Source of the DNA: Candidatus Woesearchaeota archaeon
Lineage (GTDB): Archaea; Nanobdellota; Nanobdellia; Nanobdellales; CAZNIQ01
Assembly (NCBI GenBank): GCA_964573185.1
Contig: CAZNIQ010000023.1
Span: forward strand, 1-10,488
DNA: 10,488 bases
Direction: 5' to 3'
Position numbers and translations under genes: made by a program. The notes beneath the pieces were generated by a model. It was not told the origin of the DNA, searched no databases, and saw nothing but the letters and a program-made list of their open reading frames with translations. This document shows, in pieces, positions 544 to 5,559 of this stretch; positions within the stretch are counted from its first letter, which is position 1; every line of letters begins with the position of its first letter.

Positions 544-550
544 TTTAAAT
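544..550 (+). promoter_or_regulatory. TATA-like box TTTAAAT for the permease-methyltransferase operon
   Basis: Lies at -30..-24 relative to the ATG at 574. This is the expected archaeal TATA-to-start spacing if the mRNA is leaderless. AT-rich background lowers specificity. Confidence 0.35.
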
Positions 551-566
551 TAGTTACTATACATTA

Positions 567-574
567 GATTTTAA
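567..574 (-). promoter_or_regulatory. TATA-like box TTAAAATC for tRNA-Val
   Basis: Lies at -31..-24 relative to the mature tRNA 5' G at 543. This implies little or no 5' leader. Confidence 0.3.
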
Positions 575-2370
575 TGTCTTTAAAGAAAGAGTTAACACTC
601 AAAGATATAATTCTTATAACCATAAACTCAATTGTAGGGGCTGGAATTTTCTTTATACCAGAAGAAACTGCAAAATACGGTTTGATCTCAATATTAGCTT
701 GGATTTTGATGGGTTTCTTTTCAATAGTAATGTCTTTAATAATAGCAGATTTAGTATATAAATATCCTAATGCTGGAGGTCCTTATGAGTTTGTTAAAAG
801 AGCTTTTAACTCAAAATTCTTAGGATTCCTGACAGCTTGGCTAGAGATAATTGCTTCTTTACTTATAGTTGCAATGACTTTAACAGCATTATCTATGGAT
901 TTCCAATATTTGACTTCTTTACCAAAACATGTTTTCATTCTATTAATTATTATTCCTCTAACATATCTAGCTTATAGAGGAATTAAAACTTCAAAATACA
1001 CTCTCATAATTTTTGCTGGAATAACGATAATAACGTTAATTTACGCCCTCATAGCAGGAGCTATTCTATACTCTTCTTATTTTGATACCATTATTAAAAA
1101 ATTAAAGATAGGTATGTTAACTGTTCCGATATTCCTAACCATTCTGTTTAAAGTCTTTGAAGCTTATGCTGAATGGGAAGGTATAACACATTTAGCTGAA
1201 GAAACAAAGAAAAAGGAAGATGTAGCTTATGGTTTAATAATTGGAAACCTAGTTATAGTAATTATTTATTTTATACTAGCCTTTTTATTAACGGTTTTGT
1301 ATGGTACAATTAATATTTTGGAAACTACATTGGGAAAAATCCTGATTATCTTAATATTGATCCAAGCCTTAGGAACAATATTTTCTTGGTTAGTGTTTAT
1401 ACCAAGATTATTATTTGCTTTGGGAAGAGACGAGGTAATACCTTATATCTTTGCAAGGCTTCATCCGAAATATAGAACACCGTATGTCTCAATCATTTTT
1501 GTATCAGTTCTAATACTATTCTTTTCCTTAACGGGAACGTTTTCTTTAACTCTTGAAACCCTCGTTTATACTTTATTAATAAATTATATCTTAATTGTAT
1601 TGGGATATATAAAGTTAAAATTAAAGGATGAAAAGGGATTTATACCAAAGAAGTTGGGATTGCTTTTAGGATTTACAGCATTAATCGTTTTATTTATACT
1701 TGCCAGCATCAAATTAGAATATTTACCTTTGATATTTGTGTTTATAGTATTGGGAATCACTTTTTATTTAACTTATTTGATTAGAGCTCACTATAAACTA
1801 ATAGAATTTGTACATGGGAAAACGTCTTTTATCTTAGATATTTTATCTCATTTCTGGATGAAAGATAAGTACATAAATGATATAATTCTGTATATTTCTC
1901 CCTTGGAGAATAAAAAAATATTAGATTTTGGATGCGGTCCTGGAAAGCTTTCCATTGAAATAGCTAAGAGATGTAAAAACTGCATAGTTTTTGCTTCAGA
2001 TATATCACCTGAAATGCTTAGAAGAGTTAGAGAAAAAGTAGAAAAAGAAGGTATTCATAATATTATTTTAATTTTAGAGAAAAAAGATAGAATAAATCCA
2101 CATTTCAAAGAATACTTTGATGCTATAGTTTCTATAGGTGTGCTAGGTTATATTATAAACCCGGAGATCTTCTTAGAAAACTTATCAAGGGCTTTAAAGA
2201 AAAAGGGAAAATTTATGTTTATAGAATTTGATAATGTATTTAAGATTTTTAGAGCACCAAAGTGGATATTTAACAAAGAACTTTGGGAAAAATATGGATT
2301 AAAAGTTGAATATTTAAAGGAGAAAGAGCTATTTTGGGATGTAATTTATGTCTATGGAGAGAAAGTATGA
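574..2370 (+). CDS. Fusion protein: N-terminal APC-superfamily amino acid/polyamine permease, C-terminal class I SAM-dependent methyltransferase
   Basis: Single uninterrupted 598-codon ORF. Residues 1 to about 425 form about a dozen hydrophobic helices with an N-terminal NSIVGAGIFFIPEE signature typical of APC permeases. Residues 429-598 carry class I methyltransferase motifs: motif I ILDFGCGPGKLS, post-I FASDIS, motif II FDAIVSIGVL and motif III KKGKFMFIEF. A TTTAAAT box lies 30 nt upstream of the ATG. Confidence 0.8.
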   Translation: MSLKKELTLKDIILITINSIVGAGIFFIPEETAKYGLISILAWILMGFFSIVMSLIIADLVYKYPNAGGPYEFVKRAFNSKFLGFLTAWLEIIASLLIVAMTLTALSMDFQYLTSLPKHVFILLIIIPLTYLAYRGIKTSKYTLIIFAGITIITLIYALIAGAILYSSYFDTIIKKLKIGMLTVPIFLTILFKVFEAYAEWEGITHLAEETKKKEDVAYGLIIGNLVIVIIYFILAFLLTVLYGTINILETTLGKILIILILIQALGTIFSWLVFIPRLLFALGRDEVIPYIFARLHPKYRTPYVSIIFVSVLILFFSLTGTFSLTLETLVYTLLINYILIVLGYIKLKLKDEKGFIPKKLGLLLGFTALIVLFILASIKLEYLPLIFVFIVLGITFYLTYLIRAHYKLIEFVHGKTSFILDILSHFWMKDKYINDIILYISPLENKKILDFGCGPGKLSIEIAKRCKNCIVFASDISPEMLRRVREKVEKEGIHNIILILEKKDRINPHFKEYFDAIVSIGVLGYIINPEIFLENLSRALKKKGKFMFIEFDNVFKIFRAPKWIFNKELWEKYGLKVEYLKEKELFWDVIYVYGEKV

Positions 2371-3115
2371 GATAGTAATAGTAAAGGAAAATGAAGAAGA
2401 GTATATTAAAGTAGCTAAAAAACTTGGGGTTAAGGATTTAGTAATGCTCTATGAGGTAAATAAACTTTCTGATTTGTCTATATTCTTAGATTACAAAAAA
2501 CCTTATGATATAAACATTTATTTAGGAGCGTTAATAAGAACGAATAACAAAAAAAGAATTAGAAGGCTAGCTGTAGAGTTGTATTATAATAAAAATTTGT
2601 TTAATGATTTAATTGTTGTAGAAGCTTCTTCTCCAGATATAGTAAGATACGTTTCGGATTTAAGGTTTGTGAATATCGTAATTAATGTTGAATGGTTAGC
2701 GCAAGAGGATCATTTGCATTATAGGAAATCTGGATTAAATCATATCGTTGCTAGAAGATTAAAAGAAAATAATATTGCTTTAGGAATTCCATTCGCAAAA
2801 TTAATTAACACAGAGCTTTACCTTAAAGGAAAAGTTTTTGGGAGGATTTTGCAGAATATTCAGAAATTATATAAAAAATACAGGTTTAAAATAATTATAG
2901 CCTCATTTGCTGAAGATCCTTATTTAATGAGAAGACCTGAGGATTTAATTTCTTTAGGAAGGGTATTAGGTTTAAATTATCATGAAGCTTTAGAAGCTGT
3001 AAGTAAAAATATTGAGGAACAAATGAAAAGAATAAGAGAAGTTAAAGATCCTACAACATTGGGAATAGGATTTAAGATAGTTAGATATCCATTTGAAGAT
3101 TATGAAGATTATTAA
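2348..3115 (+). CDS. rnp3: RNase P protein component 3 (Rpp30/Rnp3 family)
   Basis: 255-aa ORF overlapping the upstream gene by 23 nt (an alternative Met lies at 2354). The segments VVEASSPDIVRYV, GLNHIVARRLKENNIALGIPFAKLI, FKIIIASFAEDPYLMRRPEDLISLGRVLGL and EALEAVS follow the pattern I recall for archaeal Rpp30 (TIM-barrel, PHP-like). For comparison, Pyrococcus Rpp30 has ...DHVLAK....NVALGF... and ...RYPRDLISLGVVIGM... Assigned by eye from memory, not by search. Confidence 0.7.
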   Translation: MSMERKYEIVIVKENEEEYIKVAKKLGVKDLVMLYEVNKLSDLSIFLDYKKPYDINIYLGALIRTNNKKRIRRLAVELYYNKNLFNDLIVVEASSPDIVRYVSDLRFVNIVINVEWLAQEDHLHYRKSGLNHIVARRLKENNIALGIPFAKLINTELYLKGKVFGRILQNIQKLYKKYRFKIIIASFAEDPYLMRRPEDLISLGRVLGLNYHEALEAVSKNIEEQMKRIREVKDPTTLGIGFKIVRYPFEDYEDY

Positions 3116-4229
3116 AATTAAAGAAGGTTCTGCTGAAATTTTAGTTCCTGAGGAAACTTTAAAGAAGCCCTATACTGCTGTTGACGTCTTTTATAATCCA
3201 AGGATGAGAATAAATAGAGATATTTCTGTTTTGGTATTACAGGCTCATAAGAATATTGTAGGTAGAAAATTAAAGATTTTGGATGCAATGGCTGCTACAG
3301 GAATAAGATCTATAAGATTTCTTAAGGAAACAGATGCAGTTGAAGAAATAATAATAAATGATTTGAATCCAAAAGCTGTTGAATTTATTAAAAGGAACTT
3401 AGAGATAAACAAAATTGAAATTAATGAAAAAATAAGAGTTGAAAATAAAGATTGCCTAGAAATAATGTTAAAAGAGAAATTTGATTATATTGAAATAGAT
3501 CCATATGGGACTCCTGTACCATTTTTGGATTTAGCTGTTAGATCTTTAAGAAGAGGTGGTATCCTTTCTGTAACTGCTACAGATGTTGCTGCTTTAACAG
3601 GAGCAAGAGAAAAAGCTTTGAGAAGGAAATATCAGGTTATAGGTTTTAAAACGGATTTCTTTTACGAATTTGGATTAAGAGTATTAGCTAAAAAAATAAT
3701 AGAAATAGGTGCACAATATGATTTCGCATTAGTTCCAATCTTTGGATACTACAAAGAACACCATTACAAAATATTCTTTGTAAAGAAAGGTAGTCAAAAG
3801 CTGGCTAATGAACTTTTAGAAAATATCCGATTCATAAGTTATTGTGAAAAATGTATGTATCGTGAAATAGACGTGAACACTAAATGTAAAGTTTGTGGAA
3901 GTTCTATGAAAATTTTAGGACCAATATATACAGGTCCTTTATGGGATGAAAAATACGTGAACGAAATGTTGAGGATAGATAACCCCTACATTTCAGAAGA
4001 AACAAGGGAATTATTAAATAAAATAAAAGAAGAAATGAAGTTTAAAACCCCGTGGTATTATGATTTAAGATTCTTTGCTAAAAAATATAAATACAAGGAA
4101 TTAAAGAAAATAGAGTACTATTTACAGAAATTAGAGGGAGTTCGAACGCATTTTTCAAATCTAGGAATAAAAACTGATAAAGATCCTTATGATGTAATTA
4201 AAATCTTGTCAGAAGAGGCTATCAAGTGA
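3093..4229 (+). CDS. trm1: tRNA (guanine(26)-N2)-dimethyltransferase Trm1
   Basis: 378 aa with hallmark Trm1 motifs: VFYNPRMRINRDISVLVL, ILDAMAATGIRSIRFLKE (SAM site), IIINDLNPKAVEFIKRNL, IEIDPYGTPVPFLDLAVRSL and GGILSVTATDVAALTG. The C-terminal domain has a CxxC...CxxC pair (CEKC, CKVC). The start could be M4 at 3102. Overlaps the rnp3 stop. Confidence 0.9.
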   Translation: MKIMKIIKIKEGSAEILVPEETLKKPYTAVDVFYNPRMRINRDISVLVLQAHKNIVGRKLKILDAMAATGIRSIRFLKETDAVEEIIINDLNPKAVEFIKRNLEINKIEINEKIRVENKDCLEIMLKEKFDYIEIDPYGTPVPFLDLAVRSLRRGGILSVTATDVAALTGAREKALRRKYQVIGFKTDFFYEFGLRVLAKKIIEIGAQYDFALVPIFGYYKEHHYKIFFVKKGSQKLANELLENIRFISYCEKCMYREIDVNTKCKVCGSSMKILGPIYTGPLWDEKYVNEMLRIDNPYISEETRELLNKIKEEMKFKTPWYYDLRFFAKKYKYKELKKIEYYLQKLEGVRTHFSNLGIKTDKDPYDVIKILSEEAIK

Positions 4230-4735
4230 TTGTAATAAGAGCTTAAATAATACTTTGAAAAAAGAGTTGTGATATTTGTATAAAAAGTCCATTCACTGGG
4301 AAATGCTGAAAATAAGAATACACCAGTAACATATATCCCACTCTTCCTTATTGTAGAATGATTAGCGCTTGAATAAAAATAGATGATATCAATACTTTTA
4401 TTGGTCCCTATAACAAGATGCGTTTTATTTTCCCTACAATCTAATTCAATTTGCGAGCAGGATATGTTTAAATCTTGGATATTTTTTGAAAGAATAAACA
4501 TCGAATAATTATCCATATAATATATTTTGACTGGAACTGCAAATAAGAATTCTGGATACTTATAATATCTGCTATATAATTCCTTAAGTTTATAAAGTGT
4601 AATAAAATCTAAAACTATGTCGTTCTTTTTAAAGAAATCTACGTATTCAAAGAATTTTTGTTGCAAGGAATATATCATTGTGAGCAAAACTATTGAAAGC
4701 AAAATTATTGATAATACTTGAAATTGGGCTTTCAT
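4187..4735 (-). CDS. Hypothetical secreted/surface protein with pilin-like (class III type) N-terminus
   Basis: 182-codon ORF. Its ATG overlaps the upstream gene's stop in an ATGA (4732-4735). The N-terminus MKA/QFQVLSIILLSIVLLTMIY is a short basic head, then A-Q, then a hydrophobic helix, as in archaeal prepilin-peptidase substrates. It has 6 N-x-S/T sequons and 2 Cys. No family recognised. Confidence 0.65.
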   Translation of the reverse strand: MKAQFQVLSIILLSIVLLTMIYSLQQKFFEYVDFFKKNDIVLDFITLYKLKELYSRYYKYPEFLFAVPVKIYYMDNYSMFILSKNIQDLNISCSQIELDCRENKTHLVIGTNKSIDIIYFYSSANHSTIRKSGIYVTGVFLFSAFPSEWTFYTNITTLFSKYYLSSYYNHLIASSDKILITS

Positions 4736-5559
4736 TTGGAAATAAGTATATACAGATTTCTATATTTTATAGGTATTACTTCTTTGTTTTCTATACCTGA
4801 TACAGTTGTAATATTCAAAGCTTCTAAGGGAAAGTAGATAGTTCCATAATTGGAAGAAATGTTACATACATTATTATTTCCTTCTCCAAGAATAACATAC
4901 GCGTAACCAGTATAATTAATAAAAACAACCTTTAAATTTGTGGTAGTAATATTTATTAAAGTAGCTGTTGTAAAAGTAAAATTGTCATAATTAGTGAAGA
5001 AACTTACATTGATGGGCACATTTTTTAAAACATATATTATTTTGCTTTTGGTATAAAAACATGTTTTATCATTCTTCTTAAAGAAAGGGAGAAGGTTATA
5101 GTAACCGTCAAAAACTAATGAGACATTTGTGATGTTTGTACATACAAATCCCGTTGAATTCAATCTGTATACATAGGCAACTACACTTTTATTTATACAT
5201 GAAAAGATTTCTTTTCCATTTAGATCGATAACTTTATAATTTGATGGTATTGGTAAAACAATGTATCCTCTTTTAACATAAATAGGGTACATGTATCCTA
5301 CGCTAACATTAAAGCTCAGAGGTAAATGATTAAGTACAAAATTTATTGCGAAATCATTGTATTTTATCAAAGAATCCATTATAAATTTGCTTTTTAATAA
5401 TTCTAACAAGTTATATGTTTTAATAATTGTTTCCCAATGAATAGAAGGATAATTAAAGGAAAGGGAGCTAGTATATGTGAGGACAAAGAACAGAAAGAGG
5501 GGAATAAAGAGCCATTCTAAAAGAGCTACTACCATAAGTATTTTATTTTTGTTGTTCAT
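4732..5559 (-). CDS. Hypothetical membrane-anchored or secreted glycoprotein candidate
   Basis: 275-codon ORF. The N-terminus MNNKNKILMVVALLEWLFIPLFLFFVLTY is a basic head plus a hydrophobic helix. The ectodomain is rich in Y/N/I/V with 11 N-x-S/T sequons and 4 Cys. It is translationally coupled to the downstream ORF. An alternative start is M9 at 5535. No family recognised. Confidence 0.65.
   Translation of the reverse strand: MNNKNKILMVVALLEWLFIPLFLFFVLTYTSSLSFNYPSIHWETIIKTYNLLELLKSKFIMDSLIKYNDFAINFVLNHLPLSFNVSVGYMYPIYVKRGYIVLPIPSNYKVIDLNGKEIFSCINKSVVAYVYRLNSTGFVCTNITNVSLVFDGYYNLLPFFKKNDKTCFYTKSKIIYVLKNVPINVSFFTNYDNFTFTTATLINITTTNLKVVFINYTGYAYVILGEGNNNVCNISSNYGTIYFPLEALNITTVSGIENKEVIPIKYRNLYILISK

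Follow-up and report, generated by a model that had tools for sequence, protein, structure and literature searches.

A LAT-type carrier joined in one chain to a class I methyltransferase domain: a protein family of Nanoarchaeota/Woesearchaeota with a possible role in SAM sensing

INTRODUCTION

Woesearchaeota, Nanoarchaeota and other DPANN archaea have very small genomes and rely on partners for their amino acids. In this work we have analysed a stretch of 10,488 nucleotides from a Woesearchaeota archaeon (contig CAZNIQ010000023.1; hereafter the window), in which an APC-type permease and a class I SAM-dependent methyltransferase (MT) appear to share one open reading frame. Is this a real protein, and what would a methyltransferase do at the end of a carrier? 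A first reading, made from the sequence without database searches (the sequence-only reading), had raised two possibilities, and both are still live: that transport is coupled to methylation, or that the joining serves regulation or tethering. Full-text literature searches returned no description of a permease-methyltransferase fusion; the family is undescribed and is defined in the present analysis.

RESULTS

One gene, one chain

The fusion gene lies on the forward strand at positions 574 to 2370 of the window (stop codon included), starts with ATG and comprises 598 codons. The list of open reading frames gives it as the single continuous frame that the sequence-only reading had described, with a translation free of stops, and in DNA of about 29% G+C an open frame of this length should be far beyond what chance would produce. 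The AF2 model of the whole 598-aa chain (mean pLDDT 91.9, pTM 0.80) shows, in this order, a 12-helix LAT/APC-type carrier (residues 1–405), a three-helix linker (406–445) and a minimal class I SAM-MT (446–598). Pfam supports both parts of the earlier proposal, an APC-type permease and a complete small methyltransferase. That the two had been joined by the assembly was also considered at that stage, and it is contradicted by the recurrence of the same collinear frame in NCBI, ENA and Logan assemblies, in single-cell genomes and in closed genomes; both halves share one frame in the nine complete loci checked (9/9). The fusion of permease and MT domain is confirmed as a real single gene of a symbiotic-type (DPANN) archaeon, and we hold the architecture and the family membership described here to be correct with near certainty.

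The carrier domain

The carrier is encoded at positions 574 to 1788 (+ strand). Pfam AA_permease_2 matches residues 7–377 with 104.6 bits (E 7.8e-30; cut-off 27) and AA_permease scores 65.2 bits (cut-off 24.6), the AA_permease matches together spanning residues 7–400. In the AF2 model there are 12 transmembrane (TM) helices, of which TM1 and TM6 are broken at residues 20–24 and 198–202, as in the LeuT fold; the corresponding sequences include the motif GAGIFF in TM1 and FEAYAEWE in the TM6 region. The sequence matches of the carrier in the PDB include LAT2, xCT, y+LAT, BasC and AdiC (E-values 1e-14 to 1e-8), and Foldseek gives target-normalised TM-scores of 0.75–0.81 against LAT1, BasC and AdiC. 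By its profile score and its 12-TM LeuT-type fold, the carrier belongs to the APC superfamily. With 12 TM helices, and with 14 lysines and arginines on the inner side of the membrane against 5 on the outer side, both termini are cytoplasmic, and so is the MT domain, a point that the sequence-only reading had left to topology prediction.

The curated NCBIfam subfamilies of APC carriers place the protein less closely: it scores 106.3 bits for TIGR00909 (ABT; cut-off 556.8), 73 for TIGR00905 (APA; 409), 44.5 for TIGR00911 (LAT; 701.8) and 64.7 for NF008245 (YjeH; 284). On these scores, far below the cut-offs, the protein resembles the ABT, APA, LAT and YjeH subfamilies and is a member of none of them. 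Its predicted cargo class, judged by its LAT-like sequence, is amino acids. LAT1, LAT2, y+LAT1, xCT, BasC and AdiC have, like the fusion carrier, a 12-TM LeuT-type fold with broken TM1 and TM6, and LAT/APA-type carriers also share with it G-x-G-I-F in TM1, the cytoplasmic motifs FPxxGGxYE and EETKxP, and cytoplasmic termini. In contrast, the solved LAT/APA-type carriers have no methyltransferase domain, and their identity to the fusion carrier is only 17–21%.

The linker and the methyltransferase domain

From TM12 the chain runs into the MT domain through three cytoplasmic helices (residues 406–445, positions 1789 to 1908, + strand; AF2 helices 407–416, 418–428 and 431–441), which are the counterpart of the lid that small methyltransferases have at their N-terminus. 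P430 of this linker is kept in 86% of the family (n=140), and the mean conservation is 0.51 for the linker and 0.57 for both the carrier and the MT domain.

The MT core (residues 446–598) is encoded at positions 1909 to 2367 (+ strand). Over residues 445–553 it matches Methyltransf_25, Methyltransf_11 and Methyltransf_31 of Pfam with 61.6, 58.4 and 62.2 bits (cut-offs 27, 21.2 and 27), and the AF2 strands 448–452, 471–476, 497–501, 515–521, 541–553, 576–584 and 589–597 form a seven-stranded Rossmann-like sheet. Motif I, ILDFGCGPG (residues 449–457, positions 1918 to 1944, + strand), is the predicted SAM-binding glycine loop; of the 140 family members, 97% retain its E/D451, 98% its G453 and 97% its G457. 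At the end of strand β2 stands D476 (positions 1999 to 2001, + strand), an aspartate or glutamate in 86% of the 140 members, which we take, from the general class I methyltransferase fold, to be the acidic residue that binds the ribose of SAM. The window protein has all the canonical SAM-binding motifs (G453-C-G455-P-G457, D476, E502 and D516), and by its profile scores, its seven strands, the GxGxG of motif I and the acidic end of β2 this part of the chain is a class I SAM-MT domain. In the family as a whole, at least one of five core positions is altered in 43 of the 140 members, and clearly destructive changes in motif I occur in only about 5%. Positions expected on the substrate side are also well kept in the 140 members (S520 in 94%, Y526 in 84%, W564 in 92% and W588 in 94%).

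When the isolated domain was compared by Foldseek, 3dh0 gave a TM-score of 0.77–0.80, with UbiG, Coq5 and NovO as further matches; all the matches are generic small-molecule methyltransferases, a sarcosine/dimethylglycine MT-like protein among them. Enzymes of the Methyltransf_11/25 type (3dh0, 3mgg, UbiG 4kdc/5dpm, Coq5 4obw), whose TM-scores to the domain are 0.73–0.80, share with it the seven-stranded core, GxGxG, the acidic residues after β2 and β3, and FDxxxS in β4. UbiE/UbiG/Coq5-like enzymes, however, are stand-alone proteins, soluble or peripheral, whereas the fusion domain is continuous with TM12; it is also minimal by comparison (about 150 aa plus the lid helices), and the identity is 10–22%.

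The fusion family

The sequence-only reading had not recognised the pairing as a standard architecture. Instead, it is standard within one archaeal phylum: of the 400 Nanoarchaeota/Woesearchaeota genomes sampled, at least 117 carry the fusion, and a search of species-representative genomes with a tighter family alignment as query gave 235 related loci. An exhaustive search was needed for the family, as a word-based search with the MT region alone returned only 2 proteins. In the permease tree, a branch with support 0.97 separates all 140 fusion proteins from 142 permease-only relatives; the family is monophyletic and specific to Nanoarchaeota/Woesearchaeota. The window protein aligns end to end with the 139 other fusion proteins and is a divergent member, with 28–31% identity to the main clade and nearest relatives at 79% and 44%.

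No split or MT-less version of the fusion was found in more than 140 proteins and the 235 loci; orthologues with unlinked halves, which the earlier reading had named as evidence against a genuine fusion, were not seen there. Stand-alone soluble orthologues of the MT domain were not found either, the short top matches being fragments or proteins with preceding TM helices; those that cover the MT part only begin inside TM10–TM12 or inside motif I.

Fusion-bearing genomes often carry several copies. Within a genome, the carriers of paralogues are 34–42% identical and their MT domains 45–69%, and one genome (G364) shows the reverse, with a carrier identity of 95% and an MT-domain identity of 66%. 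Some paralogues have gained an S4-type voltage-sensor-like N-terminal module, and their carrier is still 55–56% identical to that of the sister protein; in these the MT domain lacks G453 and D476 and falls to 22–28% identity, and its full length is retained. The family also includes forms of about 840 aa, whose extra 200 aa gave one weak and uninformative match to DUF3108. Relatives found in the same searches carry Usp and PTS-EIIA domains at the C-terminal, cytosolic end.

Gene neighbourhood

The sequence-only reading had pointed to tRNA-processing genes as the next in line, and this is so. A gene for the RNase P subunit Rpp30 (positions 2348 to 3115, by profile match) overlaps the 3΄ end of the fusion gene and is itself overlapped by the gene that follows, trm1 (positions 3093 to 4229, by profile match). 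The linkage of Rpp30 and Trm1 downstream of the fusion is shared only with the 79%-identical orthologue. Five other contexts are different. Elsewhere in the family the neighbours are TatD/PAPS reductase, LeuRS, SecY, PPDK, diphthamide synthase or a Na+/H+ exchanger, and no conserved enzyme partner or operon was found among the neighbourhoods compared.

DISCUSSION

What does the methyltransferase fold do on a carrier? We tentatively favour, at a little under an even chance, the reading that the domain acts mainly as a putative built-in sensor of SAM or SAH that gates the carrier. The MT-fold domain would bind SAM and/or SAH in the cytoplasm, binding of the ligand would order its lid helices, the linker would transmit this ordering to TM12 by mechanical means, and amino-acid uptake or exchange would thereby be tuned to the methionine, SAM and energy status of the cell.

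Sensing is favoured by the fact that the halves were never found split, since mechanical allostery needs an obligatory covalent linkage, and the whole-chain pTM together with the conserved linker fits a fixed geometry between the domains. In the voltage-sensor-bearing paralogues one regulatory input appears to have replaced another while the fold stays part of the carrier, and the C-terminal cytosolic domains of relatives (Usp, PTS-EIIA) are of regulatory types. The full-length fold matches, which include SLC12 carriers and the c-di-AMP-binding KimA, point the same way. SLC12, KimA, APC-Usp and APC-EIIA proteins have the same plan as the fusion, an APC-fold membrane part followed by a C-terminal α/β cytoplasmic domain, and the Foldseek full-length alignments to SLC12/KimA-type carriers extend over 580–750 columns; in those carriers, however, the cytoplasmic folds and ligands differ, and an rmsd of 14–16 Å means that the domain is not placed in the same way. 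The lack of a conserved enzyme partner or operon in the compared loci also speaks for a sensor, and a SAM synthetase is present in 94 of the 117 fusion-bearing genomes, so SAM would be available there as a signal. As a conceptual analogue, SAMTOR is an animal SAM sensor with a methyltransferase fold; unlike the fusion, it acts with separate protein partners, and it has no sequence relationship to it. A further argument comes from the paralogues, where the divergence of the carrier is not matched by the MT domain, as would be expected for a constant ligand. It loses force because a globular domain that carries universal motifs often retains more identity than a membrane domain, and the opposite pattern in G364 also speaks against it.

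Against sensing, the domain of the window protein is fully canonical and of catalytic type, and its fold neighbours UbiG, Coq5 and NovO are active enzymes. The conservation of S520, Y526, W564 and W588 equals or exceeds that of D476, and this pattern on the expected substrate side, as read from the alignment, would suit a conserved methyl acceptor no less well than a surface on which the lid docks. With destructive changes of motif I in so few members, most could be active enzymes.

These observations belong to the main competitor, which we consider possible and, on balance, doubtful: a putative active small-molecule methyltransferase placed where the carrier opens to the cytoplasm. Either the imported solute would be methylated, as metabolic trapping or to give an N-methylated compatible solute, or a methylated counter-substrate would be made for export by an exchanger. 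The LAT-type relatives of the fusion work as exchangers. Precursor/product antiport is established in the APC superfamily by the decarboxylase/antiporter pairs AdiA-AdiC and GadB-GadC, which are conceptual analogues of methylation coupled to transport, although there the partners are separate and have no sequence relationship to the fusion. The SAM motifs, intact in the window protein and each kept in 86–98% of the 140 members, argue for catalysis, as do the conserved substrate-side residues, the active small-molecule methyltransferases among the nearest folds (the sarcosine/dimethylglycine MT-like protein included) and the equal conservation of MT domain and carrier (0.57 versus 0.57). On the other side, neither partner genes nor a pathway context are conserved, and methylation would be costly and hard to rationalise for imported amino acids in auxotrophs. 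No SAM synthetase was found in the window's genome, the MT domain fails to co-diverge with the carrier in paralogues, and members with dead SAM motifs still retain the full-length domain. Finally, the halves never occur as adjacent split genes, unlike those of typical transporter-enzyme metabolons.

Whichever of the two holds, it would add something new to the biology of secondary transporters and cast light on how these symbionts handle host-derived nutrients. If sensing is true, nutrient uptake is tied to SAM/methionine status in a compact prokaryotic counterpart of eukaryotic amino-acid/SAM sensing, and a one-chain SAM-gated amino-acid carrier would be new for prokaryotes. If methylation is true, a SAM-driven group-translocation or precursor/product mechanism resides in one polypeptide; to our knowledge, SAM-driven vectorial metabolism of this kind has not been described for any transporter class.

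Could SAM itself be the cargo? In the window's genome, which is 89% complete, 7 radical-SAM genes stand beside Trm1 and further methyltransferases, and no SAM synthetase of archaeal or bacterial type, no SAH hydrolase and no member of the PNP/MTA-SAH nucleosidase family was found there; in the closed genomes of the same order both synthetase types were likewise not found. In these organisms SAM is used with no known route for its synthesis or for the clearance of SAH, so it must come from outside. The carrier might then import SAM, or swap SAM for SAH, with the MT-fold domain receiving it or handing it over, and replace the synthetase. No APC permease other than the fusion is encoded in the window's genome, and in yeast the SAM permease, Sam3, likewise belongs to the APC family. 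Yet across the 400 genomes the fusion goes with the synthetase and not against it, the ratio of genomes with to genomes without it being 94/23 where the fusion is present and 137/146 among the 283 fusion-free genomes, a comparison confounded by kinship and genome size. There are thus 146 genomes with neither fusion nor synthetase, and G059, the smallest genome of the same order, also lacks both. The carrier, moreover, retains the TM1/TM6 motifs of LAT carriers, which are of the α-amino-acid type. We judge SAM acquisition improbable: family-wide, an importer replacing the synthetase is rejected by the association in the 400 genomes, and SAM import survives solely as a lineage-specific possibility.

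The sequence-only reading had further suggested that a free MT of 170 aa may be made from an internal start. Such a product could accompany the full-length protein or take its place. Its coordinates are right: M429 is the ATG at positions 1858–1860, and the hexamer TTTTAT lies 31 nt upstream (1827–1832, + strand; candidate internal start 1827 to 1860). The spacing also suits a genome of leaderless type. Across the genome, TATA-like hexamers are most frequent at 30 to 27 nt before gene starts; they precede 44% of gene starts and, counted in a window from −34 to −24, only 6.9% of internal in-frame ATGs. The fusion gene itself has such a box, TTTAAATT (544 to 551, + strand), 30 nt upstream of its ATG; its PWM score of 4.45 is above that of 73% of gene starts, which implies that the fusion transcript is probably leaderless and driven by this box. 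M429 stands at the domain boundary. The box before it, however, scores only 0.93, a value reached by 11% of internal ATGs and exceeded by 69% of true starts. Neither element is conserved: in the 79%-identical orthologue (L005) the Met is kept and the box is destroyed (TTTTCT, −2.26), and the M429 column holds Met in 5 of 140 family members, the consensus being L-P-K. A chain started at M429 would also keep only one lid helix of the three. The internal start would be lineage-specific at best, and we rate the existence of two products as slightly less probable still than SAM import.

The least probable account, which we would credit only at a very long shot, is that the fusion is an artefact of assembly or frameshift, against which stand the collinear frames from independent sources, or that the domain methylates RNA in concert with the tRNA-processing genes downstream, as the operon had hinted. 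For an RNA methyltransferase, the overlapping series of Rpp30 and Trm1 can be named, and some generic weak Pfam matches to RNA methyltransferase families, which are below their cut-offs or far weaker than the small-molecule families (TRM5-TYW2 at 22.8 bits, cut-off 28, and a marginal RrnaAD); against it stand a neighbourhood kept only in the closest orthologue and a domain that is always membrane-tethered.

The natural variants of the family, namely members with dead SAM motifs, the voltage-sensor-bearing paralogues and the forms of about 840 aa, offer material for experiments. Beyond the SAM-binding motifs, W564, W588 and K597 are further conserved, family-specific residues of the MT domain.

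Results

The fusion gene forms one continuous frame of 598 codons at 574-2370 (+), and ORF calling and translation agree here with the sequence-only reading, which had described a transporter joined to a methyltransferase (MT). The window is an entire contig (C23, 10,488 bases), and the genome to which it belongs comprises 594 kb in 37 contigs, is 89% complete and has about 29% G+C. In Pfam, AA_permease_2 matches residues 7-377 (E 7.8e-30), and the generic class I MT families Methyltransf_25, Methyltransf_11 and Methyltransf_31 match residues 445-553 (E ~1e-16). Since the NCBIfam amino-acid-transporter subfamily models that match the protein score far under their curated cut-offs, it is best described as APC-like and a member of no named subfamily. 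Motif I in its MT half is of textbook form (ILDFGCGPG), and acidic residues stand where they are expected, at D476, E502 and D516. With an identity of only 28-31% to the main family clade, it is judged a divergent member of the fusion family, found in a 0.6-Mb genome of a small-genome order.

The junction between carrier and MT domain was followed in other assemblies. An NCBI assembly and, independently, a Logan assembly both contain a 79%-identical orthologue of 598 aa; two ENA assemblies contain a 44%-identical relative, also of 598 aa, and further assemblies contain relatives of about 30% identity, all of them collinear through the junction. One collinear homologue of 573-578 aa is encoded in each of three closed, single-contig genomes from the same order, and full-length members are also present in single-cell genomes. 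Because collinearity holds across independent assemblies, closed genomes and single-cell genomes, we regard the junction as secure.

A whole-chain AlphaFold2 model, built with 42 homologues, was confident (mean pLDDT 91.9, pTM 0.80). In this model the carrier (residues 1-405) has 12 TM helices, with TM1 and TM6 broken as in the LeuT/APC fold, the linker (406-445) consists of helices 407-416, 418-428 and 431-441, and the MT core (446-598) is minimal, seven-stranded and Rossmann-like, with strands across 448-597. In Foldseek the membrane half neighbours LAT1, BasC, y+LAT1 and AdiC (target-normalised TM 0.75-0.81), and a PDB sequence search concurs. For a model of the MT domain alone (pLDDT 89.7) the closest folds include Aquifex 3dh0 (TM about 0.78), UbiG, Coq5, NovO/CouO, TleD and a sarcosine/dimethylglycine MT-like protein, all of them small-molecule methyltransferases. 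Because the positive-inside count over the modelled loops (14 versus 5) puts both termini inside, the MT domain is predicted to be cytoplasmic, which accords with the location expected of it.

Conservation was measured in 140 aligned family members. In motif I, E/D451, G453 and G457 are kept in 97%, 98% and 97%, respectively; D/E476, at the end of beta2 and expected to contact the SAM ribose, and D/E502, after beta3, are each kept in 86%. On the expected acceptor side, S520 (94%), Y526 (84%), W564 (92%) and W588 (94%) are retained, as is K597 (97%) at the C-terminal end of beta7. All five core SAM positions (E/D451, G453, G457, D/E476 and D/E502) are intact in 97 of the 140 proteins, and overall conservation is equal for both halves (0.57 versus 0.57). 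Since the core positions are kept and the halves are equally conserved, the MT domain is evidently under strong selection, and most family members should bind SAM.

Only the C-terminal 195 residues were used to query 1.84 billion cluster representatives exhaustively with HMMER, and about 50 of the best 150 matches were proteins of 550-860 aa in which the MT domain is C-terminal, behind an APC permease. The domain was matched (E <= 1e-8) in 196 of 400 sampled phylum genomes, each at least 90% complete; in at least 117 of them, counted by hand among the matches listed, it closes an open frame of at least 540 aa. Several genomes hold between two and four copies, some of which lie in tandem, and both halves were present in all nine complete loci inspected. 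Species-representative genomes contain 235 related loci, the best 80 of which are all full length, with titles mostly of Woesearchaeota, Nanoarchaeota, Nanoarchaeia or Nanobdellota, the others being generic or apparently mislabelled; sampling sites include marine, groundwater, vent and saline settings. NCBI labels such proteins plainly 'amino acid permease'. When the permease halves were placed in a maximum-likelihood tree, one branch (support 0.97) set all 140 fusion proteins apart from their 142 closest permease-only relatives, with no MT-less sequence nested among them, which points to a single origin of the fusion without detected loss. Orthologues keep the halves linked: neither a split-gene version nor a soluble stand-alone MT orthologue was found among the family searches. 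Short MT-only matches begin within TM10-TM12 or motif I, or retain the preceding TM helix; they are gene fragments and were rejected as stand-alone methyltransferases.

Two further observations concern outlying members. One full-length protein lies at the extreme end of a long contig (L058, NJBN01000005.1, 306,667 bases) titled 'candidate division LCP-89 bacterium', and either the contig is mis-binned or chimeric or the gene was transferred to a bacterium. Five proteins of about 810-860 aa (P0066, P0075, P0094, P0175 and P0190) have some 200 extra residues past the MT domain, a module whose sole match is a weak one to DUF3108 (P0075, residues 674-787).

Genome-wide, TATA-like hexamers begin 27-30 nt upstream of gene starts. 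Because a TATA-like box lies within -34 to -24 of 44% of gene starts (versus 6.9% of internal in-frame ATGs), the pattern indicates mostly leaderless transcription. The fusion gene has a TTTAAATT box at 544-551 (+), 30 nt before its ATG, within the gap of only about 30 nt that separates it from the G+C-rich tRNA-Val(CAC) gene directly upstream (472-543, -). A separate 170-aa MT from the internal ATG of M429 (1858-1860) had also been suggested. TTTTAT is indeed present at -31, with a PWM score of 0.93 that 11% of internal ATGs equal or exceed; the 79%-identical orthologue no longer has the box (score -2.26), and Met occupies this column in 5 of 140 members, the consensus being L-P-K. A second product from M429 is a weak candidate in this organism and no general trait of the family.

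Discussion

We class the protein with a known kind, the APC-fold carriers with a C-terminal cytoplasmic module, and a full-text literature search found no paper describing this fusion. Our first-ranked, still tentative reading is that the MT-fold domain would sense SAM/SAH and regulate the attached carrier. It is placed first because every family member has the two halves covalently joined, the linker is conserved and pTM for the whole chain is high, carriers diverge around what appears to be a constant ligand, the fold outlives its SAM motifs in paralogues that acquired a different sensor-like module, neither a partner enzyme nor a pathway accompanies the gene, and regulatory C-terminal domains have precedent in APC-fold carriers. 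The same searches gave relatives with C-terminal Usp and EIIA domains, and SLC12 carriers and KimA surfaced in the fold search of the fusion protein.

The most informative contrast comes from paralogues sharing a genome. Within five genomes they have carrier halves 34-42% and MT halves 45-69% identical; by these values the MT domain does not co-diverge with its carrier. Two genomes have a third paralogue of 741-776 aa (L113:2547-4874 and L116:2727-4949, both +), in which the carrier is preceded by an S3-S4-like segment whose every third residue is arginine, resembling an S4 ladder; the same segment is found in P0006, and Pfam Ion_trans did not match it at E <= 0.01. The carrier of this third paralogue is 55-56% identical to its sister and the MT domain just 22-28%, having lost G453 and D476 while retaining full length. 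Genome G364 reverses the pattern in two (L110 and L111) of its three compared copies, with carriers 95% and MT domains 66% identical, a hint of recombination or domain swapping.

Transport-coupled methylation by the attached domain ranks second, as the other live though less likely mechanism; in its favour are a fully canonical, enzyme-type MT domain, strongly conserved acceptor-side aromatic and Ser positions, and active small-molecule methyltransferases as nearest folds. SAM binding is predicted by this reading and by sensing alike.

The fusion could instead import SAM. The window genome contains seven radical-SAM genes, Trm1 and several small methyltransferases, and at 89% completeness no archaeal- or bacterial-type SAM synthetase, SAH hydrolase or PNP/MTA-SAH nucleosidase was found in it; both synthetase types are also absent from closed genomes of the same order (G059, G248, G316 and G370 being the same-order genomes compared). 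It appears that members of this order have to take up SAM and also rid themselves of SAH. If the fusion were a SAM importer, it would be expected more often where the synthetase is missing. Among the 400 phylum genomes, synthetase occurs in 94 of 117 fusion-bearing genomes versus 137 of 283 others (odds ratio 4.4, related genomes not being independent and genome size being a confounder). We reject SAM import as a family-wide role, since the fusion goes with the synthetase, and keep it as a lineage-specific possibility. In several related genomes (G228, G252, G127, G305, G287 and G242; family f14) one contig carries both the fusion gene and, 6-22 kb away, a bacterial-type synthetase gene; this proximity may reflect synteny by descent and not a functional link.

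An RNA substrate, suggested earlier from the neighbouring tRNA-processing genes, finds no backing, as that gene order is kept in the closest orthologue only; other members neighbour TatD and PAPS reductase, LeuRS, ribosomal/SecY genes, PPDK, diphthamide synthase, a Na+/H+ exchanger or HAD hydrolases.

In the window, the fusion gene, Rpp30 (2348-3115, +) and Trm1 (3093-4229, +) follow one another in series, each called ORF sharing its last 23 nt with the start of the next, an overlapping order that recurs at L005, the locus of the 79%-identical orthologue. Two adjacent ORFs, 4187-4735 (-, 182 aa) and 4732-5559 (-, 275 aa), match nothing in Pfam or NCBIfam, and two ORFs of comparable length (190 and 277 aa) occupy the corresponding position in L005. 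An RqcH-like ORF at 6600-7640 (+) has just 346 aa, the NFACT-N part of a 645-position profile, and a GAPOR/AFOR-like ORF at 8295-9788 (-, 497 aa) matches a 654-position profile only in patches; compared with their family models, both appear shortened.
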